DNA of 64,000 nucleotides from Candidatus Kerfeldbacteria bacterium (GCA_016214565.1 JACROE010000002.1:212584-276583); one strand, 5' to 3'; shown: positions 1-60,054, counted from the first letter of the stretch. Notes: generated by a model not told the origin, from the sequence alone. Translations and numbers: made by a program.

Positions 1-1150
1 CTGCATGCGTTGCTGATGCGAGCGCGCCCAGGGCTGCGCCGATCAGGATTCCTCGCCGGTGTTCATCAGTCTCGCGTCGAATCACTACTATGATGCGCCT
101 GCCTACTAATATGATAAAAGCAACGAGGGCCGCTCCTCCAAAAACGCCCAGCTCAGCAAATGCCTGCATATAATAATTGTGCGCATAACGCGGTTGCTCA
201 TTGACCGTCTCAGCATACCGAGCATACATATCTTGATATGTATTCAAACCGGTCCCAATAATAGGGTGGTCAATTGCCATGTGAATCGCGCTGACCAAAA
301 AATTCCAACGCTGGCTGAAACTTGATATGAAATCGGAATAGGAAATGGTCTCATAAATTTTAATCGCCCGCCCCAGGTCTTTATGCTGAGCATAGCGAAA
401 ACCAATTAGTCCTCCTACGCCAAGGATGGCACAGAGGAGCATGATCACTACCGTTGTACGACTAAATATTTGTCGATGAAAACGACGCAATAATATGTAG
501 AGTGGAATAATACTACTGACCCAGGCGGTGTATGAATATGTCAGAGCCAGCCCCACGATCATGGTTAGTGCAGATAATCCCCATATTGTTTTGTACAGTT
601 TCCGCTCCGCCTGAATCCACTGTATACACGCCAATGGTATGAGGAGAATGAACACGCCAGATATCGCATTTGCATTAAACAAAAAACCGCTCAAGCGAGG
701 GCTCGATTGATTGAGAAACATTACGAATCCAGCGAGTGCCCCAAGCACGCCAACCCCAATGACTCCCCAATTAAACAGTTCAATATGTCGCCAGGTACGA
801 AAAAAATGTATAGCGGAAAAATAAATAAGTATATAGGCAGCCAGCAAAAACCAGTAGCTCAAACTCCCATACCAATGTACGGAAAAAAATACCCCCGCCA
901 GCCCAATGACGAGCCAACCAATCATATATGTATGCGGATGGCTGACGACTGATCTCCAGCGAGTCGATGCGGTATTAAATCGATGACCTCGGAGAATTAA
1001 AAAGGCAAATAAAAAAGAAAAAATTAGAACAATTGCGTGCACCCATTTGCTCCATTCTGCAGAAAAAAATGAGGTCACCGTGAGCAGTGCCATGAACAAA
1101 ACCATAATGATTCGGTCACGCCCTGATACTGCCGGCATAATATGATTCAT
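1..1150 (-). CDS. Partial CDS (C-terminus runs off window start): polytopic membrane protein, O-antigen ligase / Wzy_C-like (PglL/PilO-type O-oligosaccharyltransferase candidate)
   Basis: Start codon at 1148-1150 (MNHIMPAVSGRDRIIMVLFMALL...). Continuous minus-strand frame to position 1. About 10 predicted hydrophobic helices and a large loop, typical of Wzy_C-family ligases. Not in the ORF track because there is no stop inside the window. Confidence 0.45.
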   Translation of the reverse strand, partial: MNHIMPAVSGRDRIIMVLFMALLTVTSFFSAEWSKWVHAIVLIFSFLFAFLILRGHRFNTASTRWRSVVSHPHTYMIGWLVIGLAGVFFSVHWYGSLSYWFLLAAYILIYFSAIHFFRTWRHIELFNWGVIGVGVLGALAGFVMFLNQSSPRLSGFLFNANAISGVFILLIPLACIQWIQAERKLYKTIWGLSALTMIVGLALTYSYTAWVSSIIPLYILLRRFHRQIFSRTTVVIMLLCAILGVGGLIGFRYAQHKDLGRAIKIYETISYSDFISSFSQRWNFLVSAIHMAIDHPIIGTGLNTYQDMYARYAETVNEQPRYAHNYYMQAFAELGVFGGAALVAFIILVGRRIIVVIRRETDEHRRGILIGAALGALASATHA

Positions 1151-1171
1151 AACGGGAAAACGTTTCACCAT

Positions 1172-2146
1172 TCAGATGCTAAACATACGCTGCCAATCCA
1201 GTATATCACGCTTTGTCAGTGTTCTTCGATGCCCAATCACCAAGCGCTGCCGGAATAAACGAGGCAAGGCAATCAGTGCCGCTACTCCAATCCGGATAAA
1301 TAGCCACGCCCGGACAAGTGTTCCACCGGTGCCGGCAGCCAGCGCCGCACGATCGCGTACCGCCGCCGGCCAAAGCGAGATGGGTAAATTTTTTATGGCA
1401 AAAAATATCCGGTTCCGACCAGAATGGAACAGTCGAAACGTTGAGGCGAGCGTATTCACGGTAGCCGACACCTTATGATAAACCACCGCTGACGGCGCAT
1501 ACACGATCTTCCACCCGCGCAAACGAGCGCGTACTGACAAATCGGTATCCTCGATATAGGCAAAAAAATGGCGATCAAAATAATCTCCATCCAGGCAAAT
1601 ATCCTCAAGCATTTCCCTTCGATACAGTGCGGCGCCGCCACGCGCAATGAAGCATTCGTTTTCCTCTGCATATTGACCCCTATCTTTCTCGCCTGCGCCA
1701 CGTGTAACTACCTTGAAGGCATGGGGCAATAAATAATCCCCCGCTGAATCAAAGACGTCTCGCTGAAAAAAATTCATCATCCGGCTGGCCACGGCTCCAA
1801 TACGAACATCGCGCTCAATAGCCGTGTGCAATGCCCTGAGCCACCCGGCATCAACTTCGGTATCATTATTCAGCACCGCGATAAAACGAATGGTAGAATC
1901 CTCCAGTACCGCGCGAATGCCAATGTTATTCCCCTCGGCAAACCCTACATTTTTTTTGTTAGCAACTATTGTTACTTCGGGAAATGAATTCCGCACATAC
2001 TCGACTGAACCATCACGTGAACCATTGTCGACAAGAAATATTTTCGCACGGACGGAGTCCTGCCGGCACACTGAAGCAAGACAGGTCTCAAGATGCTGGC
2101 GACCATTCCAATTCAATACGATGACTGCGGTATCAGCCTGCTGCAT
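1172..2146 (-). CDS. Family 2 glycosyltransferase (GT-A fold)
   Basis: N-terminus AVIVLNWNGRQHLETCLASV...LVDNGSRDGS followed by a DxD-type region (NNDTEVD). This is the classic GT2 signature. 324 aa. Confidence 0.8.
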   Translation of the reverse strand: MQQADTAVIVLNWNGRQHLETCLASVCRQDSVRAKIFLVDNGSRDGSVEYVRNSFPEVTIVANKKNVGFAEGNNIGIRAVLEDSTIRFIAVLNNDTEVDAGWLRALHTAIERDVRIGAVASRMMNFFQRDVFDSAGDYLLPHAFKVVTRGAGEKDRGQYAEENECFIARGGAALYRREMLEDICLDGDYFDRHFFAYIEDTDLSVRARLRGWKIVYAPSAVVYHKVSATVNTLASTFRLFHSGRNRIFFAIKNLPISLWPAAVRDRAALAAGTGGTLVRAWLFIRIGVAALIALPRLFRQRLVIGHRRTLTKRDILDWQRMFSI

Positions 2147-2161
2147 ACAGACGAGAAAAAA

Positions 2162-3352
2162 TTATATGATCAATGTATCAATAAAACTATGCTGATACAA
2201 GAGCGGCCAAAGTCGAGGCAGCAGTGCCAAATACCAGCCGAGGCTCAGAACAACAAATAGCCCCACGCTCAGCTTCCCCGTCATCCCATGCTCCGACCAC
2301 AGGTGCCAGCACCAGTAGGCAAGGGCAAGGGCAATTAGTGGCACTAGGGGCAAAAAAACATTCCACGTGCCAGGGATAATAATCCATGGCACTGCCACAA
2401 CAAACAGGCTGCTAACTATAAACACCAGCCCGGCCTCCCGCTTCCGTATCAAACGCACAGCAGAAGCTATCAAAACGCCCAGGCCTGCCCACAAGATAAT
2501 AATATTGCCCGAGTACACTACCTGATATACTCTCTGCCAGGTCACGGGATTATCATAGGCAGCGCCACTCTGGATGGGGAATGATTGAAACCATTGAATA
2601 ATCCCCCCATTAAACCAATCCGCACCGGACCGAAATGCACTATGAAATTCAGCCATGTCACGATGCAGTGTCAATAAATTTGGCAAACCAGGAATAAGCA
2701 GATACAGCGGCATGAAGAGTAGGCAATAGCAGGCAACCGCCACCACCGTCGAGAAACCCATCATTCGTACCCAATGATTCCGTTTGATGAGAGCTGCTCC
2801 CCAGAGCAGCACCAGCAAACCTCCACCAGTCCACTTAATAGCTGCCGTGCAACCAATCATAGCGGCTGCGCCAACTGCCCAGGCAGCCCGCCCCGCCTCA
2901 ATATACCGCCAGATGCAATACAGACTCACCAATATAGCCGTAGCTAAAAAAGTATCAAGCATCGCCAGCCGACCGCTGGCAAACCAATATGTTTCTAATG
3001 AGAGAAAAGTTGCAGCAAGTACCGGCACGATGTACCCGCCAAACATGCGCTTGGCTAAGAGATACACAAAAATAACACCTGTGACACCAGCCACAACAGA
3101 AAAGATTCTCCAGCCGTCAGGATTATCGCCAAATAGTCGTATGCCCAGAGCGATAATATATTTACCAACCGGCGGGTGTTCACTATTAATCAGTACCCCA
3201 TCAAAAAACCCACGTGCTGCAGATACATAGGCGACCTCATCATAGCGAAACCAGTGGTATCTTCCGAGATGTATCGAATACATGACATAATTAAAAATAC
3301 TTATTCCGCCGAGAAAAAAATAATCCCGAATTTGTAGCTGCCGATTAATCAT
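2162..3352 (-). CDS. GT-C glycosyltransferase, ArnT/PMT (GT39)-like polytopic membrane protein
   Basis: 396 aa with many TM helices. The N-terminal loop carries the DE(V) motif typical of GT39/ArnT (RYDEVAYVSAARGF...PPVGKYIIALGIRLFG). Confidence 0.65.
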   Translation of the reverse strand: MINRQLQIRDYFFLGGISIFNYVMYSIHLGRYHWFRYDEVAYVSAARGFFDGVLINSEHPPVGKYIIALGIRLFGDNPDGWRIFSVVAGVTGVIFVYLLAKRMFGGYIVPVLAATFLSLETYWFASGRLAMLDTFLATAILVSLYCIWRYIEAGRAAWAVGAAAMIGCTAAIKWTGGGLLVLLWGAALIKRNHWVRMMGFSTVVAVACYCLLFMPLYLLIPGLPNLLTLHRDMAEFHSAFRSGADWFNGGIIQWFQSFPIQSGAAYDNPVTWQRVYQVVYSGNIIILWAGLGVLIASAVRLIRKREAGLVFIVSSLFVVAVPWIIIPGTWNVFLPLVPLIALALAYWCWHLWSEHGMTGKLSVGLFVVLSLGWYLALLPRLWPLLYQHSFIDTLII

Positions 3353-3390
3353 ACTATGAACCTACCACCTTCTCACTTCCGCAGCAATGG

Positions 3391-3436
3391 TAAAACAAAA
3401 AGCGCTCTGGAATATCCAGAACGCTTCTTGTTTTTA
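3391..3436. terminator. Bidirectional rho-independent terminator-like hairpin just downstream of the pilin gene
   Basis: Stem 3401-3411/3415-3425 (agcgctctgga/tccagaacgct, one mismatch). Flanked by an A-run on the plus strand (3391-3400) and a T-run (3426-3435). Confidence 0.5.
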
Positions 3437-3449
3437 ATATCCGAAGATA

Positions 3450-3902
3450 CTAGTCAGCAGTGATACCACAGCCAATAGCACCAGTCGTGTAATCATCATC
3501 ATTCGTACCATCACCTTTCAACCAGTAATAATGTCCTGTGGCAGCTGGAGACTCCAACTGTGCATACAGGATATAGAACGGCGCGGTGAGACCACCGTTA
3601 CATGCTTGGTAGCGGTAGTGCCGAGTCGTATCCTGAGGATCATCCGGAACTCGAGTAATGTAGGTCGGCGCTAATGCGCTCAAAGCTACGTTAGCAATAC
3701 CACTCGTTGCCGGGTAGGTGCTGCCGTAATCGTCTGAGTACAGTACTAAACCAGTACGAATCTGACCAAGGTCAGATTTACGTGTGGCGTCACGGGCTTT
3801 TTCCCGGGCGCCATTTAAGGCTACCAAACCGATCGTTGCCAAAATACCGATGATGGCAATAACGACCAATAACTCAATAAGGGTAAAACCTTTTCGTTTC
3901 AT
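3450..3902 (-). CDS. pilA: Type IV major pilin (prepilin with class III signal peptide)
   Basis: MKRKG/FTLIELLVVIAIIGILATI shows the canonical prepilin cleavage/methylation motif with Glu at +5. C-terminal Cys pair (QACNGG...IGCGITAD) fits a disulfide D-region. Strong SD (GGGGGTG) 8 nt upstream. 150 aa. Confidence 0.9.
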   Translation of the reverse strand: MKRKGFTLIELLVVIAIIGILATIGLVALNGAREKARDATRKSDLGQIRTGLVLYSDDYGSTYPATSGIANVALSALAPTYITRVPDDPQDTTRHYRYQACNGGLTAPFYILYAQLESPAATGHYYWLKGDGTNDDDYTTGAIGCGITAD

Positions 3903-4192
3903 GTCTTCACCCCCTTTCTATATAGTGGCAAAGACATGCAATATGCTTCCGCGTTCTGCGAAATATCACAGATCACGGATCCGCCTGACCCGTGCTCTTC
4001 ACAGAGCAACGAAAGCGGATACCACATGTCTAGGAAACCACTTGGGATACTATTAGTTTCTTAGATTGAAACTGATAATTGAATGTGCCGTACGACAAGC
4101 TGATGCAAATCCTGTGTATAGAATAAATCAATAATATCACATTTCGTACGTATTGTCAACTAAAACTACGTAAAAAGCCAGCGTCTATTAGC

Positions 4193-5398
4193 TTAAATAG
4201 TACTGGACAGGTTATACAGTGGCAGAATAATGGCAGAAACCAAGAAACCGACGGCCACACCGATAGCAATCATAATAATTGGCTCGATTGCCGTTGTTAA
4301 ATTCCCCAGAGAATTCTCCAATTCCCGCTGATAAAAGTCAGCGATTTTCTCCAAAATTTTATCCAATTGACCCGACTGCTCACCCACGCTCATCATTTGC
4401 GACAACATCAACGGCACGTCCTTATTCTGGACAAAAACGGTCGTGATTGAAGCGCCGCCTTCAACCTTTTTAATGGTTTCCCGAGTTAAATCATGATACA
4501 GGGTATTCCCCACTACATCAGCTACGATATCCAAAGATTTGGTTAAGGGTACGCCTGAGGTCAGCAGCGTCGACAATGACCGAGCAAATCGCGTCAAATA
4601 CAATCGGCTAAACAGCGCCCCAACCAAAGGTAGCCGAATTTTTACTTTATCAATTACCCGTTTGCCTGCTGGAGTTTTATTATACCAACGGAATAAAATG
4701 ACTGCGCCGATCGCCAATAAAATAATAAGCCACCAAAATCCACGCAAAAAATCACTGATACCAATGAAGATGATAGTGGTCAGCGGCAAATCAACATCCG
4801 CTCCTTCAAAAATTGAAGTGATCTGCGGCAGCACAAAAATCATCATCATCGCTCCGACTAAAATAAGAGCGCTCACAATAAACGAAGGGTAAATCAATGC
4901 GCCGCGCGTTTTTGCTTTCAGGTCATAATCTTTTTCTTGTTGATCGGCCAAATAAACAAGAATTTCATCCAGTCGCCCAGTCGTTTCCGCTGAACGCACC
5001 ATCTGAATAAAGAAGTTTGAAAACACGCGAGGATATTTCCCCAGGGCCTGAGATAATTTAGCGCCACCATCAACTTCGTCAGCGACATCAGACAGCACTG
5101 ATTTTAGCTTGACGCTGTTTGTTTGTGCCACCATAACTTTCAGCGCGCGCACAATTGGCACGTTTGATGAAATCATCACCGACAACTGCCGAGCAAAAAC
5201 TACGATGTCCTTCGAACTGACCCCCGATCCAAATGACAGTCCTGAAAATAATTGCCGGGATTTCCGCTCCTTCAGCGATACGATAAATAAGCGCTTATCG
5301 CGTAACATGCCATACGCAATATTTTCCGACGGCGCCACTACGACGCCATCTACTGTTTGCCCTTCGATTGTACGCGCTTTATACGCAAATTCCGACAT
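4193..5398 (-). CDS. pilC: Type IV pilus inner-membrane platform protein PilC (GspF family)
   Basis: 401 aa. Two GspF-type repeats with TM segments, in typical PilC arrangement next to pilB. Confidence 0.85.
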   Translation of the reverse strand: MSEFAYKARTIEGQTVDGVVVAPSENIAYGMLRDKRLFIVSLKERKSRQLFSGLSFGSGVSSKDIVVFARQLSVMISSNVPIVRALKVMVAQTNSVKLKSVLSDVADEVDGGAKLSQALGKYPRVFSNFFIQMVRSAETTGRLDEILVYLADQQEKDYDLKAKTRGALIYPSFIVSALILVGAMMMIFVLPQITSIFEGADVDLPLTTIIFIGISDFLRGFWWLIILLAIGAVILFRWYNKTPAGKRVIDKVKIRLPLVGALFSRLYLTRFARSLSTLLTSGVPLTKSLDIVADVVGNTLYHDLTRETIKKVEGGASITTVFVQNKDVPLMLSQMMSVGEQSGQLDKILEKIADFYQRELENSLGNLTTAIEPIIMIAIGVAVGFLVSAIILPLYNLSSTI

Positions 5399-5407
5399 GG
5401 GTAAAAA

Positions 5408-5797
5408 TTATTTTTTCGTTTTGCTAATAATTGATTTCACTTTTTCCACCACTTCCGCTGGCATAAAATGCGCTTTGATCAAATAATCCACCGCACCAAT
5501 TGCCAGGCCTTTCTGCACATCCTCTTGCTGTCCGAGATTGGTCAGCATCAAAACCGGAATATTCTTTGTTTTTGGGTCGCTTTTGAGATTTTTTAGCACG
5601 TCAAACCCGCTCATTTTCGGCAAAATGACATCGAGCAAAATAATGTCCGGCTTGATTGATTGCGCTTGTTCAAGTCCCGCCTCCCCGTCACCTGCCAAAA
5701 CCACTTCAAAATCTTCAAGGTTCATCTTGGTAACGTACATGCCGGCTAAAAATGCATCATCCTCAACCAGTAATATTTTTGTTTTGGAGTTGGCCAT
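5408..5797 (-). CDS. Single-domain response regulator (CheY-like REC only)
   Basis: KILLVEDD...DIILLDVILPKMSGFDVLKNLK...PVLMLTN...K. All REC phospho-acceptor landmarks are present. 129 aa with no output domain. Confidence 0.85.
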   Translation of the reverse strand: MANSKTKILLVEDDAFLAGMYVTKMNLEDFEVVLAGDGEAGLEQAQSIKPDIILLDVILPKMSGFDVLKNLKSDPKTKNIPVLMLTNLGQQEDVQKGLAIGAVDYLIKAHFMPAEVVEKVKSIISKTKK

Positions 5798-5801
5798 ATG
5801 A

Positions 5802-7571
5802 CTATTTTTTAGTTGCGCTTAATACTTCACTAAATGACGTTTTGCGTTCCAGAGCCTTCATAATGCCGTCCTGTGCCATCACGACCATATTTTGGCGGAG
5901 AGCGGTCTCGCGGATAGCGTCAATCGTAGGATTACTCACAATAATATTCTTCATCTCATCATTGACCTCAATAATTTCATTAATCAAAATACGTCCTTTG
6001 TAGCCAGTGTTTTCGCAGCGGACGCAGCCCTTGCCTTCATAAAATTTGAATTCCGGCTTCTCCACGCCGAGATGGCGTTTATAGGCTTCTGGCGGGATGC
6101 CCATCATTTGCTTCTCTACCTCTTTCATTAATTCAGCGGGAAGCGCCACTTCTTCTTGGCAGTACTGACATAACCGACGCACCAAGCGCTGAGCCACCAC
6201 TGTTGAAAGTGAAGCCGTGATCAAGAATGGTTCAATTTTCATATCAATCATGCGGGGAATCGCGCCAAATGAATCATTGGTGTGTAGTGTGGATAAAACT
6301 AAATGTCCCGTCAGCGAAGCGTGCACGGCTAATTCAGCAGTTTCACTATCACGAATTTCACCGACCATGATCACATCCGGATCTTGGCGCAAAATAGAGC
6401 GCAATCCAGCGGCAAAGGTCAGTCCAACATCAGGGTTGATTTGCGACTGATTCACCCCTTCGATGTAATACTCAACCGGATCCTCTAGGGTCACGATATT
6501 AATTGCCTCGTCATTCAATATAGTTAACAACGCTGACAAAGTGGTGGATTTACCCGAACCAGTCGGCCCGGTGAGTAAAATCATACCCACGCTTTTTTCT
6601 GTAGCGCGTTTCATCAAGTCTAATGATCGTCCCTCAAACCCCAATTTTTCTAAATCAAGCACCACCGCCGCACGATCCAAAATACGCATCACGACTTTTT
6701 CATTGGCAAAGAGTGGCAGCGTCGAAACGCGATAATCAATAATACGCCCACCCCACTCCGTACGGAACCGGCCGTCCTGTGGCACCCGCGTTTCATCCAG
6801 CTTCAAATTGCACATAACTTTAATCCGAGCCACGATAGAATTATGAACATACCGCGGTAATACCAACGATGTGTGCAGCACGCCATCAACTCGATACCGC
6901 ACGCGCGTCTCATTTTCCACCGGCTCGATGTGAATATCAGATGCATTGCCTTCGACCGCGTGCTTCAAAATAACATTCACCATCTTAGACACAGGCGCGC
7001 TCTTGACCACCTCCTCCATTCCCTTTTCCTTCGTTAGCGCCTGCTCCAACATATCCTCGTCGCCATCCTTCTGCTCGGTACTTGCGAGCGCCTCTTCGAC
7101 TTCAGCGCCGAGCGTTGCATATTGTTTAAACGCTTGGCGGAAACCTGCATCAGAAATCAAAAAATAATTTAATTTGTACCCATTTTCTCGTGCAATAAAT
7201 TCTATGGCTTCAATCGCCTTGAAGTCTCCCGGATTAACCATGGCGACCGAAACCGTGTTCCCCTCTTTTGCGAAGGCAACCACGTGATAATTCTCGGATA
7301 ATTCGCGAGGGATCAAATTCAAAACTGATTGGGAAATTGTTTTCCCAAATAAATCAATATAGGTAACCCCTAATAATTGCGATCGACCACGCGCCACATC
7401 CTCCTCAGAAACAAATCCGCGCTGGAGCAATTCAGCGATAATCGACTCGTCATCCGTGGCGTGCTCGCGGACACTGGCTAATTTGTCAGCAGGTAACTGT
7501 ACTTGCTGAGTGACAACATCAACAATTGATTGAGCTGGGGATTGAAAATTTTGATTCAATTGATCATCCAT
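5802..7571 (-). CDS. pilB: Type IV pilus assembly ATPase PilB (GspE family)
   Basis: N-terminal T2SSE_N domain. Walker A LLTGPTGSGKSTTL, Asp/His boxes and a tetracysteine motif (CQYC...CVRC). 589 aa. Confidence 0.9.
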   Translation of the reverse strand: MDDQLNQNFQSPAQSIVDVVTQQVQLPADKLASVREHATDDESIIAELLQRGFVSEEDVARGRSQLLGVTYIDLFGKTISQSVLNLIPRELSENYHVVAFAKEGNTVSVAMVNPGDFKAIEAIEFIARENGYKLNYFLISDAGFRQAFKQYATLGAEVEEALASTEQKDGDEDMLEQALTKEKGMEEVVKSAPVSKMVNVILKHAVEGNASDIHIEPVENETRVRYRVDGVLHTSLVLPRYVHNSIVARIKVMCNLKLDETRVPQDGRFRTEWGGRIIDYRVSTLPLFANEKVVMRILDRAAVVLDLEKLGFEGRSLDLMKRATEKSVGMILLTGPTGSGKSTTLSALLTILNDEAINIVTLEDPVEYYIEGVNQSQINPDVGLTFAAGLRSILRQDPDVIMVGEIRDSETAELAVHASLTGHLVLSTLHTNDSFGAIPRMIDMKIEPFLITASLSTVVAQRLVRRLCQYCQEEVALPAELMKEVEKQMMGIPPEAYKRHLGVEKPEFKFYEGKGCVRCENTGYKGRILINEIIEVNDEMKNIIVSNPTIDAIRETALRQNMVVMAQDGIMKALERKTSFSEVLSATKK

Positions 7572-7585
7572 ATTCAGCGGCTCGC

Positions 7586-8503
7586 TTAGAAATTGATTGG
7601 CTCAAAAGGATTAGCGTGATACGGCACGCTCACGAGTTCGCGTGTCGATTCATTTCCCTCAGCATCGACTGCAGTAACCGTGTAATAATACGGCGTATTC
7701 GGCTGGATTGACGTATCGCTAAATGAATATTTGTCGCTATCGGCTCCGCTGCCCCCCTGAGGAGCACCCTCCACTAGTACACTGCCGAGCTGACCGCTTA
7801 TTGCAGAACGATAAATTCGCACTAAGGCAACGTCACTTGGATCTAATAATTGCCAGGTGATGGTCAATGAATCGTCGTTTGAGGTTACCGCCACATTGGT
7901 GGGACTCGCGGGTGGAACTTCATCAGTCGCGATAGCTGCTATATTAGACGAGTACGGTGATGTATCACCTTCAGCATTTGCCATGCGCACTACGTAATAA
8001 TATCGAACAAAATTTTCCACCGTTGTATCTCGGTAATTAAGTTCCGCGGATGCATCGGATGTTTCCAGTGTAGCGATTAATTCTCCCCTATCAGACGTAT
8101 TTTGCGATCGATAAATCTGCGCTGACGTAAAATTAACAAACGCCGGATTTTTCCATGAGATAATAAGCGTATTACCAACGCCGGGATTTTCTATGTGCAC
8201 ATTGGTGGGGGGCAAGGGTACACTCAAATCAAGAGCGACACCGCTGTATTGATCGGCATATCCCTCGTGCGGTTTGCGTGATAAGCCATTTAACTGGGAA
8301 TCAGAAAAAATATCCTCCTCAAACTTCGGCACGCTTACCTGAGGCATGGTACTGACCACTCCCGTCGGTGATACCTGCTGCTGGCTGGGCGCCGCTGCGT
8401 AAAATTGGCTGTAGACGAAATATCCACCACCCAGCACAATCACGAGTAGCGCGATAATGAGATTGACAGTTCGTTTATTGAGGCTGTGTTTCTGAATCAA
8501 CAT
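7586..8503 (-). CDS. Membrane-anchored protein with two fibronectin type III-like domains (in the PilP position of the operon)
   Basis: N-terminal TM (LIIALLVIVLGGGYFVY). Two approx. 90-aa units end in YYYVVRMANAEGDTSPYS and YYYTVTAVDAEGNES, which are FN3 G-strand signatures. Confidence 0.55.
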   Translation of the reverse strand: MLIQKHSLNKRTVNLIIALLVIVLGGGYFVYSQFYAAAPSQQQVSPTGVVSTMPQVSVPKFEEDIFSDSQLNGLSRKPHEGYADQYSGVALDLSVPLPPTNVHIENPGVGNTLIISWKNPAFVNFTSAQIYRSQNTSDRGELIATLETSDASAELNYRDTTVENFVRYYYVVRMANAEGDTSPYSSNIAAIATDEVPPASPTNVAVTSNDDSLTITWQLLDPSDVALVRIYRSAISGQLGSVLVEGAPQGGSGADSDKYSFSDTSIQPNTPYYYTVTAVDAEGNESTRELVSVPYHANPFEPINF

Positions 8504-8509
8504 ATAATA

Positions 8510-9091
8510 TTATTGATAGTACAGCGTAAGGTTGAGCGTATAGTTTGTCTGATCTGGATCGTATGCCAATGAGGTTAATTCAAGCAGCGGCAATTGCGTG
8601 CTCACCGCATCCAAAAAACTTTTCATTTTTGAGTAGCTGGTAACATTTTGCACTCCCAGAGATATGTTAAGTGTCTTAATTGCTGCCTTGGCCGCTTTTT
8701 TGGAGCCGTCCGGTATGCTTAATGGGCCGCTATCAATACTAACTAATGATAATTCATTATCTGCGACGAAATCCTTCAGTTCAATCATAATTTGCGGGAT
8801 TTCTGACTCATGGGGTAGGACTGACTGCAGCTGAGCAATCTGTGCGTGAGTGACCGCCCGATAGCGAGTTTCGAGATCCTCGAGCCGCTCAAGGGTAATC
8901 CGGCGCTGATTAAGCGCTTCGAGCTGTGTATTCAAATCAACCACGCCCGCTTCCTGAATATCGGTCACAATACGCTGGACAAAAAAGAGATAACCCAATC
9001 CCAATATCAGCACCACGCAGCCGATGACGACAAAAATAAAGTACCTGCTAAAAATATAAGCTATTCGACGTTTGAGTAATTTCGATTTCAT
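8510..9091 (-). CDS. pilO: PilO-like pilus assembly protein (TM plus coiled-coil plus ferredoxin-like domain)
   Basis: 193 aa. Single N-terminal TM and a coiled-coil-rich segment. Position between pilN and pilB. Overlaps the pilN stop by 4 nt. Confidence 0.55.
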   Translation of the reverse strand: MKSKLLKRRIAYIFSRYFIFVVIGCVVLILGLGYLFFVQRIVTDIQEAGVVDLNTQLEALNQRRITLERLEDLETRYRAVTHAQIAQLQSVLPHESEIPQIMIELKDFVADNELSLVSIDSGPLSIPDGSKKAAKAAIKTLNISLGVQNVTSYSKMKSFLDAVSTQLPLLELTSLAYDPDQTNYTLNLTLYYQ

Positions 9092-10824
9092 AAGGTCGGT
9101 GAGAAATAAAAGATGGCTGGCTGAACCGTCAATTCGACGGTGAAGGTCACTGGCGTGTCCCCGACTCGAGCAGCCGGAGTCGCGCTCCCTATCGCCGAAG
9201 TCGCGGTTGTGTTTGTTGATTCGGCCAGGGTTCCAGTAAAAGCAATCCCGGAAACCGTGACGTCAGAAACAAATGACTGAGCCTTTTCAAATACCATAAG
9301 CTGCTTAATCGCGGCGTCATAATTACGGCCAACCGCTTGCAGTGTTACGGTGCCATTTACATCAGCAGACATTGAGGTGAAATACACGTCAGGACTGGTT
9401 GCCCGCTCCAATTCTGAAAAGAATGATGACCAATACACGTGCTTATCCAGCAGTGTGGAAACATTATCAATCTGTACGCGCAATTCATTAATCTCATTAA
9501 GCATTTTCTCGTATGACCGTATTTGAATATCCGCAATGACGATCTGGTTATTCATTTTATTTATCTCGGTAGTAATCGAATTGTAATACCAGTTTGCCCA
9601 GAGCCACCCGCCAAAAACGACGCCCACGGCCACTACAATAAATGTTGCCAGCATCATCACCCGCGAAATCGAAATTTCTTGTTCAAGCGATTCTTCGGGT
9701 ACTAGGTTGACTTCCCAATTCGTGCCAAGCGGTGCGCCAGCGCCCAAACCAGCCTGAGCCTGTAGCGTGTGAGAGGCCGCTGCTGGCCGATGAAATAATT
9801 CCTTGAACCATTGCAGCAAACGCATCCACCCCGAGAGCTGCTGTTTTTTTGGCTCAGCCTGGGTCATGGGTTGCGCTTCAGTCATGCGCATAGCTTCGTT
9901 TGTTGCGTGTTTTTTCTTCGGCACTGCCTGCACTATCGGAATTGTCGGGGCTGGCGGAACCACGGGCATTGCCGGCACAGCCGGTTTGGCAACTGACGGA
10001 ATTGGTACACTCGAAACTACCGGCTTCGAAAATTTAATCGCCGGAGCTGGAGAAGGTGTCGTGGGCGCAATAACCGTTGGACGTACCGGTTGAATTACTT
10101 TTGGCGTTGGAGCAATGATTGGCGATGAAACTGCCGCAGCTTTGAAACGGACTGACAAGGCGGGCTCAACCGGTGTGGGCATTGCCTCTATTTCTGTTGC
10201 CGCAGGTTTTACCACTGCCGGCTTCTCTGCTCGCGCAAACAACCCACGTAACCAATGCAATAATCGAGTAAAGAATGATCCCTGATGGGTAGACTTGCTC
10301 AAACCAGCAACAGTCGTCACCGTAATCACGTCTCCATGACGATGCTGATCATCCACGGGCTGTGATACTTCCCTTTCTGAACGTACGGGCGAGTATTTAG
10401 GAAACCGTTCGCCCAGTGGCTGGGTTGGTACAGCGGGCGCAACTGGAGCCGACTGACGCCGCATAAAGCGCGCCAAAAATCCACCCGAATCTTTTGGTAA
10501 TGGATGGGGCGTTACAACTGGTTTCGCCGCTGGTTTCACATATGTGATTACCTTCTTTTCAGGTAGAGCGGGTGCCGCTCGATATACAATATGCTCCTCA
10601 ATATTCACTTTGCGCTCGGGTAAACGAACTGCTGTTTCGTCAGCAACTTGTTTTTTTGGTCGAGAAAAAGCACCCTTAAAAAATGTCAAAACACCTGCCC
10701 GCTTCACGCTTGATCGCGATTTTTCGCTATGCGTGGGGCCAGTCATGACAATGGTTTGTTCGCGGGATTGTTTTTCGGTTTTTGCTTTTGCTTTTTCCTC
10801 GCTAGGGAGGAGATTGATCGCCAT
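9088..10824 (-). CDS. pilN: PilN-like pilus assembly protein with approx. 380-aa Pro/Ala-rich insertion
   Basis: Starts MAINLLP (PilN INLLP motif). Single TM near residue 395 (VMMLATFIVVAVGVVFGGWLW). The C-terminal approx. 180 aa looks like a PilN periplasmic domain. A long low-complexity PAxP region separates the INLLP motif from the TM. Confidence 0.6.
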   Translation of the reverse strand: MAINLLPSEEKAKAKTEKQSREQTIVMTGPTHSEKSRSSVKRAGVLTFFKGAFSRPKKQVADETAVRLPERKVNIEEHIVYRAAPALPEKKVITYVKPAAKPVVTPHPLPKDSGGFLARFMRRQSAPVAPAVPTQPLGERFPKYSPVRSEREVSQPVDDQHRHGDVITVTTVAGLSKSTHQGSFFTRLLHWLRGLFARAEKPAVVKPAATEIEAMPTPVEPALSVRFKAAAVSSPIIAPTPKVIQPVRPTVIAPTTPSPAPAIKFSKPVVSSVPIPSVAKPAVPAMPVVPPAPTIPIVQAVPKKKHATNEAMRMTEAQPMTQAEPKKQQLSGWMRLLQWFKELFHRPAAASHTLQAQAGLGAGAPLGTNWEVNLVPEESLEQEISISRVMMLATFIVVAVGVVFGGWLWANWYYNSITTEINKMNNQIVIADIQIRSYEKMLNEINELRVQIDNVSTLLDKHVYWSSFFSELERATSPDVYFTSMSADVNGTVTLQAVGRNYDAAIKQLMVFEKAQSFVSDVTVSGIAFTGTLAESTNTTATSAIGSATPAARVGDTPVTFTVELTVQPAIFYFSPTL

Positions 10825-11030
10825 AGTTTTGCCTCCTTTTGTTTTTTGTTTTGTGGGGTACGTGCTTTGGCGAGATGCACGGATACAACCAAGACCCTCA
10901 TATCAGGGTGCTCGGCTTTTTTATTCAGGCAAATAATAGTTTTTCCCTATATTTACCTTAATATACATATATTTTAGCACATTTAAAAACTAAAGTCAAG
11001 CACCTCTGACCTTAAAATGCATAATTCAAA

Positions 11031-12206
11031 TTATTGCAACTCTCGCATGGCCAAACCGATAGCAACGGACATGCGCGGACCCAATTCACGTAATAATGAA
11101 TCAATTTCAACCGGATGCACCACGCGCGCCCAAGGATCGCCCACAAACGACCGAATGTTGAAGCTTTCTTGAATATACTGGGTTATGTTACCGAGAAAAG
11201 CCGAACCGCCAGTTAACACAACTTTTGAAATCGGCTGTTTATTCTGATTTCGGTAAATATTAGTAATATATCGAATTTCATTCATGATAGCGTTGATCAC
11301 GTATTTCACTTGCTTTGGCAATTGGTCAAGCGGCTGATTAGCCATTGAAATAGTGAGATCACGCTTCATTTGCTCAGCCTGTTCATACGAAACCTGCATC
11401 GAATCCACAATCGCCTGGGTGATACTTTTCCCTCCGAGGTCAATACTCCGATTCAAGATAGGCACGCCGTCAGCATAAATGATAATACTCGTCGCTCCGC
11501 CGCCGATATCAATGACCATGATGGGATTGTGATCATTCCCTACCAGCGAGCGCTCGATAGCGAATGATTCTGTTTCCAAACCAACTAATCGGAGGCCAAC
11601 GTCTTTAAAAAGGGCAACGTAATTATTTACTAAATTTTTGGGAGCGGCGGTTAAGAGAACCTTCAGATTTGGTTTTGAGTCTCCTCCAATAATACTCCGC
11701 TTATCAACGGTATCTTTCGCTGAAGCCCCTTTATCCGTTGGATTTGTGTTCGGGACATTCAATCCTGCAGTATTTATCTCTTTCTCTTTCTTCCTCTTTT
11801 TGTCCTCTTGCTTACCATCGTCGCCAGGCATGCCGCCTAATACCTCCCAATCCAAAATCATTTCCTCTAAGGGAATAGGTACAAATTTCTTCGCTTCCCA
11901 TCGCACCGCTGAAATCAAATCCTTCTTATTCATGGCGGGTAGACTGATGATCGAACTGAATACGCTAAAGCTTGGCAGTGCCGCTACCGCATTTTCTGTG
12001 GATACCTTGGCGCGCTTCAGCAACTCACGCAAATGCTCAGCGATTGCCGCCCGCGCTTCTTTCGTATCATCCTTCACGATATTGTATGTCTCATCAATAA
12101 AACCATACGTCACCAGCTGAGGGCGATTCTGCTCTAACTGCAATTCAACAATCTTAATACTGGATCCTCCTAAATCGATTCCGACGTAACTTTGTTTTTT
12201 TGCCAT
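11031..12206 (-). CDS. pilM: PilM (actin-like ATPase of the type IV pilus inner membrane complex)
   Basis: SYVGIDLGGSSIKIVEL...MVIDIGGGATSIIIY...LTGGSA are actin/FtsA-fold phosphate motifs. 391 aa with a Lys/Glu-rich insert. Confidence 0.85.
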   Translation of the reverse strand: MAKKQSYVGIDLGGSSIKIVELQLEQNRPQLVTYGFIDETYNIVKDDTKEARAAIAEHLRELLKRAKVSTENAVAALPSFSVFSSIISLPAMNKKDLISAVRWEAKKFVPIPLEEMILDWEVLGGMPGDDGKQEDKKRKKEKEINTAGLNVPNTNPTDKGASAKDTVDKRSIIGGDSKPNLKVLLTAAPKNLVNNYVALFKDVGLRLVGLETESFAIERSLVGNDHNPIMVIDIGGGATSIIIYADGVPILNRSIDLGGKSITQAIVDSMQVSYEQAEQMKRDLTISMANQPLDQLPKQVKYVINAIMNEIRYITNIYRNQNKQPISKVVLTGGSAFLGNITQYIQESFNIRSFVGDPWARVVHPVEIDSLLRELGPRMSVAIGLAMRELQ

Positions 12207-46637: not shown

Positions 46638-48050
46638 TCAAAAAGTCATAGTACGCAGCACGGCGCAGGTTGGCGTAGTCGCATCTTGCCAGACATAATC
46701 AGGAAATTGGCCAGGATTATTCTTTGACTGAATAATCTTTTCGTAGGCAGCCTGGACTTTGCCCACGTAATTCCTGGTTTCCGCGTAGCCAGGATTCTCC
46801 ACGCACTCCCACCAGGTTTGACCCGGACACGTCACACTCGAACAATTTGCGCCAACTCCGCCATTATAGGCCGCGTTCGCGTATTTATGATCACCATTTT
46901 TACACTGTGTTTGCTCTGGAAAGCACGAAGCTTTTTTCCCACTTTTATAGGTGGCTGACTTGGGGCACGTGCCATTCAACAAATCCCGATACAACTGTGC
47001 GGCAATGTTTATATTAGTCGCTGGATTGAGTAGCTGCTCACAGGTTATCCCGCCTGAATATTTCGCTGCGGTAGATGGCATCAATTGAATGAGTCCACAG
47101 GCGCCAACGGACGATTTTGCCTTTGGGTTACCCGATGACTCGACCAGCATCAGCGCCTTGAGCCAATCACGATCAATGCCGATATTTGCCGCTTCGGCAG
47201 TCAAACAATTATCAAAGGTACTGGTATTTGCGGTTACGGCAAACCCACTTGAAGTTTTTTCCGGCGTTTCTTTGATTTCAAATTCTCGAATCGGAAATTG
47301 TCGTTCAATTTTAATCCCATCAAACTTGACTAAATTTGGATTGATCGTCAAAAGTATGGTATACGAGGCAACCGCAATCAGCAGCCCAATCAGCGCACTG
47401 GAAATAGTCTCTTTGGCGCTCTGAATCTGCGATTGATTGCCAAAAGAGATAATATAGCGGAACCCGCCGTACATCACAAAAACGGTGGAAAGAATACCAG
47501 CCACGCTCACCAGAAATACATAGAGTGCAATAATATATTCCCCGAGTGTCGCACCCGTGATAACGACAGTCCTCCCCTCGTTAAAAATGCTGGAAAATGG
47601 AATAGAGACTTGCGGAATAAACGAAACGAGTCGACGAGGATTATCCTCAGGTGTCGTTTGAGTTTCGCCTCTCCACTGAATACATTGGTCAATTTCAGTG
47701 CAGACCTCTCCGCTTGCGTTGCACACCGTGGCAGCGCAACCCTGCGGCTCATCTGGTTTGACGACAAAACATTGCCCTTCGATTCCCTCATGCGGTGGAC
47801 AGACACAGCAGCGCACGGTCGCGGTCGGCCTTTGCCGACAAGTACTAATCTGATCACAGGGCTGAGATTGCATGACATAACCAAATGCCTCACATTGAGC
47901 AGTCTCTGGATTGGTATGTGAATAGCATTCACCTGGACCTTTGACACAGCATCGTTCAGTTTCAGGCAACCCTTGAGCGCTGACTACACTCGGAGCCACA
48001 ACAAATAACCCCGCTCCGATGATTATCAGCGTGAAAAGATATCGTCGCAT
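46638..48050 (-). CDS. Secreted Cys-rich protein with VirB2/TrbC-pilin-like hydrophobic hairpin module and C-terminal lytic transglycosylase (SLT) domain
   Basis: Signal peptide. Cys-rich 130 aa. Hydrophobic hairpin AGILSTVFVMYGGFRYIISFGNQSQIQSAKETISSALIGLL. SLT motif LMLVESSGNPKAKSSVGACGLIQLMPSTA. Confidence 0.65.
   Translation of the reverse strand: MRRYLFTLIIIGAGLFVVAPSVVSAQGLPETERCCVKGPGECYSHTNPETAQCEAFGYVMQSQPCDQISTCRQRPTATVRCCVCPPHEGIEGQCFVVKPDEPQGCAATVCNASGEVCTEIDQCIQWRGETQTTPEDNPRRLVSFIPQVSIPFSSIFNEGRTVVITGATLGEYIIALYVFLVSVAGILSTVFVMYGGFRYIISFGNQSQIQSAKETISSALIGLLIAVASYTILLTINPNLVKFDGIKIERQFPIREFEIKETPEKTSSGFAVTANTSTFDNCLTAEAANIGIDRDWLKALMLVESSGNPKAKSSVGACGLIQLMPSTAAKYSGGITCEQLLNPATNINIAAQLYRDLLNGTCPKSATYKSGKKASCFPEQTQCKNGDHKYANAAYNGGVGANCSSVTCPGQTWWECVENPGYAETRNYVGKVQAAYEKIIQSKNNPGQFPDYVWQDATTPTCAVLRTMTF
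47316..47558 (-). repeat. Paralogous module copy 1 (approx. 240 bp, approx. 80% nt identity to 49970-50212)
   Basis: Encodes the shared FVMYGGFRY(I/V)ISFGNQSQIQSAKETISSALIGLL segment. DNA similarity is visible directly (ggaaatagtctctttggcgctctgaatctgcgattgattgccaaa vs ggaaatcgtttctttggcactctgaatctgtgactgattgccaaa). Confidence 0.75.
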
Positions 48051-48052
48051 AA

Positions 48053-49318: not shown

Positions 49319-49324
49319 AGTTTC

Positions 49325-50404: not shown

Positions 50405-50419
50405 AACTTAAAAGGGAGA

Positions 50420-51073: not shown

Positions 51074-51104
51074 AAAATATATAGATTAACCTTTAATAAT
51101 TGAC

Positions 51105-53003: not shown

Positions 53004-53004
53004 A

Positions 53005-53682: not shown

Positions 53683-53687
53683 GATGA

Positions 53688-54119: not shown

Positions 54120-54121
54120 AC

Positions 54122-56418: not shown

Positions 56419-56575
56419 GATGATCGATTATGCTTAAAAAAATCATATAATGAGCATTCAAAATCATGGCTACATTATAGCATAATTTGCCGATAAAATC
56501 AAACCACGAAAATCATCGGCAAATATCTAAGTGATTGTTGAAGAAAACGCAAAAAAATGGTAAAATAACGTTACT

Positions 56576-57403: not shown

Positions 57404-57443
57404 TATTTTAGGTGACCCATATCCGTATAGCACATTATGAGTG

Positions 57444-60052: not shown

Positions 60053-60054
60053 AA

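Follow-up and report, generated by a model that had tools for sequence, protein, structure and literature searches.

A candidate pilus-subunit O-glycosylation island inside a type IV pilus operon of Candidatus Kerfeldbacteria

Gene content of the locus

The DNA analysed here (the window) is a 64,000-nucleotide stretch from the genome of an uncultivated member of Candidatus Kerfeldbacteria (Patescibacteria). Near its start, genes for type IV pilus assembly and a major pilin are followed by three genes for predicted glycosylation enzymes: a GT-C membrane glycosyltransferase, a GT2 glycosyltransferase and a Wzy_C-family membrane protein (Table 1). All features described in an earlier reading of this DNA, made without knowledge of its origin (the sequence-only reading), are present on the minus strand, and its central observation of three co-oriented genes 3′ of the pilin gene was confirmed by coordinates, strand and Pfam domains. 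GT-C and GT2 are 15 nt apart, and GT2 and Wzy_C abut (0 nt). A contig that is 100% identical to the window (L095), reached by exact look-up of the GT2 protein (P0174), carries on a single strand PilB, the response regulator, PilC, pilin, GT-C, GT2, a complete Wzy_C protein with tetratricopeptide repeats (Wzy_C-TPR), two pilin-like genes, a prepilin peptidase and minor pilins. Minor pilins and the prepilin peptidase lie beyond the cassette in the same orientation, which places it within the pilus operon. Searching for exact copies of the 396-aa GT-C, or of P0013, the NCBI call of Wzy_C-TPR, gave zero matches, and an alternative-start GT-C (P0001) matched one 5.6-kb contig ending in GT2.

Table 1. 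Features of the pilus locus and the genes 3′ of the pilin
Feature	Coordinates	Strand	Evidence and remarks
PilB ATPase	5802-7571	-	Pfam T2SSE + MshEN
Response-regulator receiver	5408-5797	-	Pfam Response_reg
PilC	4193-5398	-	Pfam T2SSF
Major type IV pilin	3450-3902	-	150 aa; N_methyl and GspG-like matches
Intrinsic-terminator-like hairpin	3392-3434	-	Folding energy compared with shuffles
PMT-like GT-C	2162-3352	-	396 aa; PMT_2 + PMT
GT2	1172-2146	-	324 aa; Glycos_transf_2
Wzy_C protein, first 390 codons	1-1171	-	Wzy_C; ORF cut by the window edge

The major pilin has a typical leader (MKRKG/FTLIELL; N_methyl E=1.6e-9), and no Rfam family matched its 5′ UTR. It is the presumed acceptor of the glycan. 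Two Ser/Thr-rich strings, YGSTYPATSG and DGTNDDDYTTG, had been put forward as a hint of glycosylation; both are present, but they also occur in an 82%-identical pilin (locus L010) that has no GT-C beside it. The candidate acceptor site, judged from the sequence, is the loop LESPAATG (Ser118) between Cys101 and Cys145. The corresponding motif LE[SAR]P was found in 13 of 17 pilins accompanied by Wzy_C and in 2 of 43 without it, a post hoc and phylogenetically confounded association. The protein ends in ...CGITAD, with no terminal Ser or Thr, and the pilins of relatives end in varied residues.

Directly 3′ of the pilin stop codon lies a hairpin with a U tract. Its 20-bp stem (dG -30.7 kcal/mol, z = -9.4 versus shuffles) is followed by UUUUUGUUUU; a consensus terminator scanner missed it because the stem runs into A and T tracts. 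Stable hairpins (best MFE ≤ -18 kcal/mol) were seen just 3′ of the first pilin gene at 25 of 30 related loci. The proposed terminator between pilin and cassette does exist, but it belongs to the major pilin genes of this group in general and not specifically to the cassette. Its probable role is that of an attenuator, allowing high expression of pilin while keeping that of the downstream genes low.

The GT-C protein scored 71.3 bits with PMT_2 (cut-off 26.1) and 39.8 bits with PMT (cut-off 22.7), and its score of 48.6 with the NCBIfam model PrMnsylTfPmt is far under the equivalog cut-off of 800. The motifs YDEV, EHPPVGK, GDNPDGWR, RLAMLD and KWTG are conserved with homologues. Asp38 and Glu39, within FRYDEVAYVSAAR after the first transmembrane helix, are invariant in 11 aligned homologues. 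The AlphaFold2 model (pLDDT 79, pTM 0.85) had Pmt4 as its top PDB match (9i5k_A, E=3.2e-9, query TM 0.77), and ArnT (5f15) gave a query TM of 0.59. A PDB search by sequence returned only a chance aquaporin match. The PMT_4TMC domain, precomputed for most homologues, was undetected at E≤0.01, and the corresponding helices are present in the model, which is of low confidence at residues 238-279; no TPR or MIR domain was found in the Pfam scan. By motifs and modelled fold, GT-C is a minimal protein O-mannosyltransferase-like (GT39-like) enzyme. Of the earlier description as an ArnT-GT39-like, TfpW-style enzyme, the PMT/GT39 family survives; kinship with ArnT or TfpW was rejected, given the PMT-type motifs, the PMT-type best fold and the lack of a TPR domain.

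GT2 matches Glycos_transf_2 (79 bits), with a GT-A fold and a single C-terminal hydrophobic segment (residues 276-294). Its distant homologues, and only those, are named decaprenyl-PP-GlcNAc rhamnosyltransferase (WbbL) or AglI by their sources; GT2 itself reached 34.7 bits against a cut-off of 200 for the rhamnosyltransferase subfamily TIGR01556. From these similarities, GT2 is probably WbbL-like and would extend a polyprenyl-PP-linked sugar on the cytoplasmic face. A role as polyprenyl-phosphate-sugar synthase for GT-C was also considered and is less likely, because GT2 is kept with Wzy_C in relatives where GT-C is absent.

The full-length Wzy_C protein has 661 aa (650 aa in P0013), with C-terminal TPR repeats. 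The Wzy_C domain scored 70.3 bits in the window fragment (E=1.9e-19, cut-off 31.7) and 69.3 bits in P0013. The sequence-only reading had named both Wzy_C and PglL models as informative: Wzy_C lay above cut-off, but PglL_A (PF15864) did not match full-length P0013 at E≤0.001. The AlphaFold2 model (pLDDT 79.8) matched TPR/OGT domains and, in a Foldseek comparison, the O-antigen ligase WaaL (7tpg_B, E=7.8e-5, target TM 0.52). A PDB search by sequence gave TPR matches only and none for the membrane domain. Arg277 and His320 are invariant in 10 family members and align with R288 and H338 of E. coli WaaL in an hhalign comparison that is weak alone (E=0.075) and whose aligned stretch excludes WaaL R215. 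These WaaL residues are conserved in PglL as R298/H349 (PMC3643930), and the equivalent His is required for TfpM activity (PMC9829042). Taken together, the sequence features make Wzy_C-TPR a candidate pilin O-oligosaccharyltransferase.

Linkage to pilin genes and the post-pilin slot

Synteny was followed in both directions. Among 80 PilC-anchored loci, 12 informative close relatives (PilC 65-83% identity) all carry a GT2 orthologue (44-68% identity) in the same position 3′ of the pilin, and eight of them show the order pilin, GT2, Wzy_C-TPR. Ten more distant loci have one or more pilins, Wzy_C-TPR and further pilins. In these relatives the Wzy_C-TPR gene is co-oriented right after the pilin, or after GT2 where present; in this genome GT-C and GT2 separate it from the pilin. 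The 10-kb upstream flanks contain no such glycosylation genes at any locus. In the reverse direction, all ten metagenome loci retrieved with a Wzy_C-TPR profile place the gene between pilin genes, and both foreign loci reached from GT2 homologues are pilus operons. Across at least 30 loci, no member of the Wzy_C-TPR clade was found outside a pilus context. In roughly half of the related pilus loci the slot is free of glycosylation genes, and the function is therefore dispensable.

The GT-C gene behaves differently. It is absent from all 80 PilC-anchored loci, all close relatives included, and a search of 1.84 billion representatives yielded only three relatives at E≤1e-30. No pilin genes neighbour its nearest homologues (P0025 and P0002), and another homologue (P0026) sits among T4SS-type pilin genes. 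A search for recent horizontal transfer by composition found unremarkable GC and GC3. Between the pilin terminator and GT2, GT-C represents an insertion specific to this lineage. The proposal that the cassette tracks with the pilin thus holds for GT2 and Wzy_C and fails for GT-C, which no relative shares.

Other Patescibacteria fill the slot with other genes: a TMEM260-like GT-C (one with a detected TPR) or a YfhO GT-C, the latter counted after exclusion of matches under 600 aa, since the profile included the methyltransferase domain of a fusion protein. At locus L096, and at L008 as far as that locus reaches, the slot holds a Wzm/Wzt ABC exporter, GT4s, GT2s, methyltransferases and a GT2-Wzy_C fusion, which in its complete L096 form bears a TPR. 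L011 and L015 have the same glycan cluster and end before the expected fusion gene. Such clusters would be expected if Wzy_C-TPR consumes a lipid-linked glycan. In the present genome, a Pfam scan of most large ORFs at 35.7-61.5 kb, together with the gene list for 6 kb on the far side of the window start, turned up none of the following: an initiating phosphoglycosyltransferase, a flippase, nucleotide-sugar genes or a polyprenyl-phosphate-sugar synthase. The scanned interval begins beyond five giant ORFs at 12.3-35.6 kb.

Interpretation and alternatives

The reading we favour, and consider somewhat better than an even bet, is that the cassette is a pilus-subunit O-glycosylation island inside a type IV pilus operon. 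The gene content, the domain and fold assignments, the retained catalytic residues and the synteny kept among relatives make this probable. The original idea of pilin glycosylation is thus supported for GT2 and Wzy_C and weak for GT-C.

We infer every step of the mechanism that follows, from the glycan and its donor to the acceptor site. GT2 would add a nucleotide-sugar-derived sugar to a polyprenyl-diphosphate-linked primer made by enzymes encoded elsewhere. After flipping, Wzy_C-TPR would move the short glycan en bloc onto Ser/Thr of pilin on the membrane's outer face, using a WaaL/PglL-type Arg/His active site, while its extracytoplasmic TPR domain may recruit the membrane-anchored pilin. 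In this lineage only, the PMT-like GT-C could add a second modification, single sugars from a polyprenyl-monophosphate donor, to Ser/Thr of pilin or of other exported proteins. The strong terminator would keep pilin mRNA abundant, and limited read-through would express the modifiers, minor pilins and prepilin peptidase.

For GT-C taken by itself, there is a substantial chance, though one that falls short of even, that it is an unrelated insertion: a housekeeping or horizontally acquired PMT-like enzyme that acts on other envelope proteins or on glycolipids and landed in a permissive intergenic slot. Its restriction to this genome and its absence from every related PilC-anchored locus fit this explanation, as do the pilin-free neighbourhoods of P0025 and P0002, the Ser/Thr-rich strings kept by the L010 pilin without any GT-C, and the lack of a TfpW-type TPR domain. 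Its placement speaks for a link to the pilus, however: it is co-oriented within the operon, 15 nt upstream of GT2, and other Patescibacteria repeatedly carry GT-C enzymes of different families in that very slot. Its ordinary GC and GC3 also count against acquisition from elsewhere, and the T4SS-type pilin genes around P0026 hint at filament-protein substrates. A broader alternative concerns the substrates of the whole cassette, which might serve general extracytoplasmic O-glycosylation, or mainly minor pilins or other surface proteins, with the major pilin no more than one of many substrates, as for Neisseria PglL or actinobacterial Pmt. PMT-family enzymes have a wide range of secreted substrates, and PglL is an O-OTase of general specificity; GT-C homologues are not pilin-linked, five giant signal-anchored proteins with 17-18% Ser+Thr are encoded just upstream of pilM, and minor pilin genes lie directly 3′ of Wzy_C-TPR. 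Nevertheless, we regard this as unlikely. Wzy_C-TPR is strictly placed after the major pilin gene or genes at every locus, the pilin motif LE[SAR]P correlates with its presence, and general O-OTase genes, Neisseria pglL for one, usually lie apart from pilE.

Two further alternatives deny protein glycosylation altogether. The cassette could build an envelope glycopolymer, with Wzy_C as a wall-polysaccharide polymerase or ligase, GT-C as a teichoic-acid-type decorator and the operon position mere co-regulation. The Wzy_C family includes O-antigen polymerases and ligases that are not distinguishable from O-OTases by sequence, YfhO-type GT-C enzymes, known as teichoic-acid glycosylases, occupy the slot elsewhere, and the L096-type clusters resemble ABC-dependent polysaccharide loci. 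The Wzy_C-TPR clade is nonetheless fully linked to pilins, with none of the loci above in a non-pilus context, and its extracytoplasmic TPR domain suggests a protein partner; we therefore judge a glycopolymer role distinctly improbable. It is less probable still that Wzy_C-TPR is a non-enzymatic assembly or envelope-crossing factor, a PilF/PilW-like TPR protein whose membrane domain has no transferase activity. TPR proteins do take part in pilus biogenesis in other bacteria, and Wzy_C-TPR is conserved within pilus operons. Yet the Arg and His of the WaaL type do not vary, nor do many loop residues, the gene co-occurs with GT2 or entire glycan clusters, and its absence from about half of related pilus loci argues that it is not a core assembly part.

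Returning to pilus-subunit glycosylation, a fuller joint reading has five parts. Wzy_C-TPR would be a new pilin-dedicated O-oligosaccharyltransferase class in Patescibacteria. Its extracytoplasmic TPR domain, not a C-terminal sequon, would catch the pilin. The interval separating the major from the minor pilin genes would serve as a modular slot for glycosylation genes. Wzy_C-TPR, TPR-bearing TMEM260-like GT-C, YfhO and glycan clusters would be exchanged there, diversifying the pilus surface, plausibly under phage or host-recognition pressure. Finally, this genome would stack two chemistries, Wzy_C en bloc transfer and PMT-type single-sugar transfer. With all five parts taken together, we advance this reading tentatively, at a little under an even chance.

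The best-supported means of host finding and attachment in ultrasmall, episymbiotic Patescibacteria are type IV pili, and pilin glycosylation in Pseudomonas protects against pilus-specific phages. Conserved, swappable membrane glycosyltransferases in a pilus operon provide concrete candidate enzymes, and an acceptor loop, for pilin glycosylation. In the literature consulted, a single paper takes up pilin glycosylation in Patescibacteria; it stops at site prediction and describes glycosylation in Saccharibacteria as unexplored (PMC11623550). Wzy_C-TPR enzymes may attract interest as new O-OTases in bioconjugate engineering. Should the glycosylation prediction fail, the strict linkage of the Wzy_C clade to pilins would still want explaining.

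Comparison with known systems

Linkage of this kind has precedent: tfpO/pilO, tfpW and 21 of 31 pglL homologues adjoin pilin genes. The probable island described here is analogous to TfpO/PglL, but Wzy_C-TPR brings both a new architecture and a new phylum. TfpO/PilO (P. aeruginosa 1244, Acinetobacter) and TfpM (Moraxellaceae) are likewise Wzy_C enzymes encoded directly 3′ of the cognate pilin on the same strand, with a common catalytic His and little or no adjacent glycan-synthesis capacity. They are ∼425-460 aa long without TPR, whereas Wzy_C-TPR has a 200-aa extracytoplasmic TPR domain and a GT2 partner. They modify a C-terminal Ser/Thr of the pilin, which here ends in ...GITAD, and their hosts are Gram-negative Proteobacteria and not Patescibacteria. 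PglL (Neisseria) and PglS (Acinetobacter) resemble Wzy_C-TPR in the conserved Arg and His of their Wzy_C core and in the larger periplasmic domain at the C terminus, and they target internal Ser in Ala/Pro/Ser-rich loops similar to the proposed LESPAATG loop. In Wzy_C-TPR, however, PglL_A is missing and the C-terminal domain is a TPR; Neisseria PglL is a general O-OTase with a gene unlinked to pilE, whereas Wzy_C-TPR is pilin-linked.

The membrane domain of Wzy_C-TPR has its best solved-structure match in WaaL, with common Arg/His positions. WaaL lacks a TPR and is encoded in LPS core loci, in contrast to the pilus operons seen here. WaaL uses lipid A-core as acceptor, a lipid of the outer membrane, which Patescibacteria are not known to make.

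TfpW (P. aeruginosa Pa5196/PA7) is a membrane glycosyltransferase encoded directly 3′ of pilA. Its combination of a GT-C core with a periplasmic TPR follows the logic of Wzy_C-TPR and of the TMEM260-like GT-C-TPR proteins of Patescibacteria. The window GT-C differs in length (396 versus 646 aa), in lacking a TPR, in its PMT-type DE (YDE) motif as against DDX, and in its best fold match, which is Pmt4 rather than Emb or ArnT; genes for D-Araf biosynthesis were not found near it in the scanned ORFs. It is closer to the GT39 PMTs (fungal Pmt1/2/4, actinobacterial Pmt), with which it has in common PMT and PMT_2 membership, the GT-C fold, a DE motif in the first extracytoplasmic loop and the HPP.GK motif. 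Compared with these enzymes it is much shorter, has no MIR domain, no detected PMT_4TMC and no Ppm1-like donor synthase seen nearby.

The pilus locus and its cassette

Every gene at positions 1-12206 of the window lies on the minus strand, and the three genes that the sequence-only reading placed after the pilin gene (GT-C, GT2 and Wzy_C) are present there, with Pfam scores and coordinates as tabulated. The cassette is tightly packed, with intergenic gaps of 15 and 0 nt. The Wzy_C fragment in the window matches at 100% a 650-aa NCBI protein, 'O-antigen ligase family protein [Candidatus Kerfeldbacteria bacterium]', which bears TPR repeats at its C-terminus (Wzy_C-TPR). The Logan contig L095 matches window 1-12146 at 100% identity and carries a further 6.3 kb beyond the window start; in it, Wzy_C-TPR has 661 aa counted from the first ATG. 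Samples SRR12113395 and SRR12113407 contain the organism of the window. Two small pilin-like proteins and a prepilin peptidase (A24) follow, and then proteins of 221, 238, 239 and 475 aa, of which the 221- and 239-aa proteins carry an N-terminal methylation motif and the 238-aa protein has no Pfam match. All of these genes share the strand of the cassette. This order places the cassette inside the pilus locus rather than at its end, between the major pilin and a minor-pilin/peptidase block.

Features of the window and of comparison loci
Feature	Location	Strand	Remarks
Wzy_C protein	starts 1171, leaves window	minus	Wzy_C 70.3 bits
GT2, 324 aa	1172-2146	minus	Glycos_transf_2 79 bits
GT-C, 396 aa	2162-3352	minus	PMT_2 71.3 bits, PMT 39.8 bits, both above curated cut-offs
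Hairpin	3392-3434		between pilin stop codon and GT-C start
Prepilin, 150 aa	3450-3902	minus	followed by the three cassette genes
5′ UTR element	3940-4013	minus	invariant core 3967-3982
PilC	4193-5398	minus	
Response regulator, receiver only	5408-5797	minus	
PilB ATPase	5802-7571	minus	
fn3 protein	7586-8503	minus	
PilN/PilO-like protein	8510-9091	minus	second of two
PilN/PilO-like protein	9088-10824	minus	after PilM
PilM	11031-12206	minus	first in transcription order
Five very large proteins	12293-35587	minus	right upstream of pilM
T4SS-like cluster	46638-55453		
SLT transglycosylase with T4SS_pilin domain	46638-48050		in T4SS-like cluster
T4SS_pilin protein	49325-50404		in T4SS-like cluster
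TraG/VirB4-like ATPase	51105-53003		in T4SS-like cluster
PPDK_N and PEP-utilizers genes	55465-61479	minus	
ORF among these genes	56576-57403	plus	between PPDK_N gene and the three PEP-utilizers genes
GT-C homologue P0026 and T4SS_pilin genes	L094:5848-9619		
Larger glycan cluster	L096:1-12805		
TMEM260-like slot, example	L064:10205-16332		
194-aa ORF	L012:13116-13700		between GT2 and Wzy_C-TPR

The terminator-like structure previously noted between pilin and cassette is real: a 20-bp hairpin followed by a U tract (ΔG −30.7 kcal/mol; z = −9.4 versus shuffles). It is not specific to the cassette, however. A stable hairpin (best MFE ≤ −18 kcal/mol) stands just after the first pilin gene in 25/30 related loci, mostly with the same A-tract/GC-stem/T-tract form and whatever gene comes next; it is a property of the major pilin genes in this group. 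The sole promoter-like match between hairpin and GT-C start is weak (9/12 positions), and genes essential for pilus assembly sit further downstream, so that attenuation with partial read-through would be a reasonable interpretation.

The major pilin mRNA also has a conserved element in its ∼225-nt 5′ UTR, downstream of a promoter-like site (4159-4131) and upstream of the pilin ATG (3902). Its core, GCACGG(G/A)TCA..CGGATCCGTGATCTGTGA, is nearly invariant in 16 distinct loci, with a fully invariant 16-nt stretch, CGGATCCGTGATCTGTG, and occurs once per locus, always upstream of the first pilin. Single-sequence folds enclose the core in an outer stem in 13/15 cases, the stem sequence differing by locus; RNAalifold recovers the invariant inner hairpin alone. 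CACGGGTC can pair with one or the other of two tandem near-repeats (GATCCGTG, GATCTGTG), and this alternative pairing suggests a switch. With no Rfam match at E ≤ 1, the apparently structured element is possibly an undescribed cis-regulatory RNA.

Linkage to pilin genes and the contents of the slot

Linkage was examined in 80 species-representative loci, each anchored on PilC and taken with 10 kb on either side; by sequence, all belong to Patescibacteria (the title 'uncultured Gammaproteobacteria' on several records is misleading). The usual order is PilB, response regulator, (PilT-like), PilC, major pilin(s), a variable slot, then minor pilins and peptidase. In each of the 12 informative loci whose PilC is 65-83% identical to that of the window, a GT2 orthologue (44-62% identity) is encoded downstream of the major pilin. 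The exact order pilin, GT2, Wzy_C-TPR occurs in eight of the 12 (L003, L004, L005, L007, L010, L012, L013 and L016), with the minor-pilin block next if the contig reaches that far. Ten more distant loci (L021, L024, L029, L030, L034, L042, L044, L047, L050 and L075) lack GT2 and have the order pilin(s), Wzy_C-TPR, pilins. In none of the loci did the 10-kb flank upstream of PilC contain a Wzy_C, GT2 or GT-C gene.

The reverse search, in which metagenome contigs were scanned with a Wzy_C-TPR alignment, gave 10 loci, a few of them duplicates of genome loci. In all 10, a pilin gene is immediately upstream (with GT2 between in four) and pilin genes lie downstream. Two foreign loci reached from GT2 homologues (P0204, 50% identity; P0217, 44%) are likewise pilus operons. 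Of the nine Wzy_C-TPR homologues that are closest without being identical, six are on contigs equal in size to GT2-homologue contigs, which suggests that the two genes share those contigs. The expectation that the cassette tracks with the pilin gene thus holds for GT2 and Wzy_C-TPR but fails for GT-C, whose homologues were found in 0/80 PilC-anchored loci.

The slot may hold more. In L096 and, as far as the loci reach, L008, L011 and L015, it is occupied by a larger cluster (L008 stops within the fusion gene, L011 and L015 before it). The L096 cluster begins with pilin, GIY-YIG, a Wzm-type ABC permease, a Wzt-type ATPase-methyltransferase fusion, GT4, GT2 and GT4, and continues with a methyltransferase, the GT2 orthologue, another GT2 and a 988-aa GT2-Wzy_C-TPR fusion, after which the minor pilins resume. 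It is a complete, ABC-transporter-dependent glycan cluster between major and minor pilin genes, as expected if Wzy_C-TPR consumes a lipid-linked glycan made and exported by its neighbours. (A further GIY-YIG gene follows a GT-C homologue in L093.) Ten other loci, some labelled Buchananbacteria, have a TMEM260-like GT-C of about 605-700 aa in the slot (L043, L053, L055, L056, L059, L064, L065, L072, L079 and L081), with a TPR repeat detected in one protein; a YfhO-family GT-C of about 755-960 aa is present as well in six of these loci, and a methyltransferase in several. Roughly half of the informative loci have a slot without a recognisable glycosylation gene. The slot is thus a recurrent home of glycosyltransferases, from different families, that act outside the cytoplasm. 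In one relative, L012, a 194-aa ORF interrupts it between GT2 and Wzy_C-TPR; read by eye, its sequence shows an NHYHLL motif reminiscent of IS200/RAYT-type transposases.

Predicted enzymes and candidate acceptors

The membrane part of the Wzy_C-TPR AF2 model (mean pLDDT 79.8) matches the O-antigen ligase WaaL (7tpg), and the final ∼200 residues match TPR superhelices, that of O-GlcNAc transferase among them. Loop residues invariant among ten family members include Q276-R277 and the block E314-QPRYAHNYY-323. A profile alignment to Escherichia coli WaaL, weak (E = 0.075) but in agreement with the Pfam match, equates R277 with WaaL R288 and H320 with WaaL H338. Both WaaL residues are reportedly essential to that enzyme and also conserved in PglL (PMC3643930), and TfpM requires the equivalent His (PMC9829042). 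Hydropathy indicates that four helices separate the catalytic loop from the TPR domain, which should put the latter on the outer side, with the predicted active site. Compared with Wzy_C and PglL models, the protein was recognised by the former and not by PglL_A.

The sequence-only reading described GT-C as an ArnT-GT39-like enzyme. Its PMT_2 and PMT scores are above the cut-offs, and the model (pLDDT 79, pTM 0.85) has its closest fold in the protein O-mannosyltransferase Pmt4 (9i5k; TMq 0.77, versus 0.59 for ArnT); a relationship to ArnT or TfpW was rejected. GT-C, which has neither a MIR nor a TPR domain, is classed as a minimal PMT-like enzyme; it keeps the family-invariant motifs YDEV (D38/E39), EHPPVGK, GDNPDGWR, RLAMLD and KWTG. 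When 1.84 billion representatives were scanned exhaustively with HMMER, 3390 relatives came up at E ≤ 1e-3 but only three at E ≤ 1e-30: GT-C itself, P0025 (40% identity) and P0026 (34%). P0025 has no pilin nearby, and another homologue, P0002, adjoins a small GT2. P0026 is flanked by three small T4SS_pilin-domain (PF18895) genes, which encode a different kind of filament protein. The window has its own T4SS-like cluster, and such proteins could be alternative substrates of GT-C. Elsewhere in the window, a PPDK_N (ATP-grasp) gene near three consecutive genes ending in a PEP-utilizers mobile domain forms a split, multiplied arrangement of phosphotransfer enzymes.

The Ser/Thr-rich pilin strings quoted in the sequence-only reading carry little weight; the L010 pilin (82% identical) has them too, in a locus without GT-C. 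A loop, [LMIVT]E[SAR]P followed by Ser/Thr/Ala/Gly, occurs in the first pilin of 13/17 loci with Wzy_C and 2/43 without (Fisher p = 4e-8), although the motif was defined post hoc and the Wzy_C-positive loci belong to few clades; in two of the four Wzy_C-positive misses the pilin ORF was uncalled or called truncated. In the window pilin, whose mature form has 145 residues, the loop reads LESPAATG (residues 116-123, with Ser118), within the Cys101-Cys145 loop. As a candidate acceptor site it is a lead, not a result. Right upstream of pilM, five genes in a row encode very large proteins (3934, 490, 791, 1230 and 1318 aa). All five, candidate surface proteins and perhaps targets of O-glycosylation, start with a signal anchor and contain 17-18% Ser+Thr; a prepilin motif is absent from every one.

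Proposed mechanism, alternatives and known systems

In the proposed pathway, GT2 would extend a polyprenyl-PP-linked primer. On the outer side of the membrane, Wzy_C-TPR would then move the glycan onto pilus subunits; a second modification, in the window lineage only, would come from the PMT-like GT-C. More distant GT2 homologues bear the source names decaprenyl-PP-GlcNAc rhamnosyltransferase and AglI. The window ORFs scanned at 35.7-61.5 kb and the 6 kb past the window start yielded no initiating transferase, flippase or donor synthase, which is a main weakness of the proposal.

The cassette could instead serve envelope glycopolymer synthesis; on the criterion set by the sequence-only reading, the GT2 and Wzy_C-TPR pair is linked to pilin and not to a cell-wall polysaccharide locus. 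It might also carry out general protein O-glycosylation, or Wzy_C-TPR might have a non-enzymatic role in pilus assembly. GT-C may be an unrelated insertion. Parsimony favours its entry into the slot in the window lineage. The GC and GC3 of its gene are ordinary. That it acts on pilin is judged about as likely as not, with some help from the other GT-C enzymes that recur in this slot.

Full-text literature on Patescibacteria/CPR pilin glycosylation, O-antigen ligases and oligosaccharyltransferases yielded no description of this arrangement; coverage was incomplete, making this an absence of evidence. The one relevant paper (PMC11623550) gives predicted sites only, and calls glycosylation unexplored in Saccharibacteria. 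In outline, Wzy_C-TPR would work like PglL, TfpO and TfpM. It is placed in none of these families, however, since it lacks a PglL_A match, and since TfpO and TfpM substrates have a C-terminal Ser/Thr that is missing from the window pilin. Its added TPR domain recalls TfpW of Pseudomonas (a GT-C plus TPR), which is paralleled by the TMEM260-like GT-C found after the major pilin in other Patescibacteria. Pilin-adjacent O-glycosylation is already known from Proteobacteria; what would be new here is the Wzy_C-TPR architecture in another phylum, together with an extra PMT-like enzyme in the window genome.
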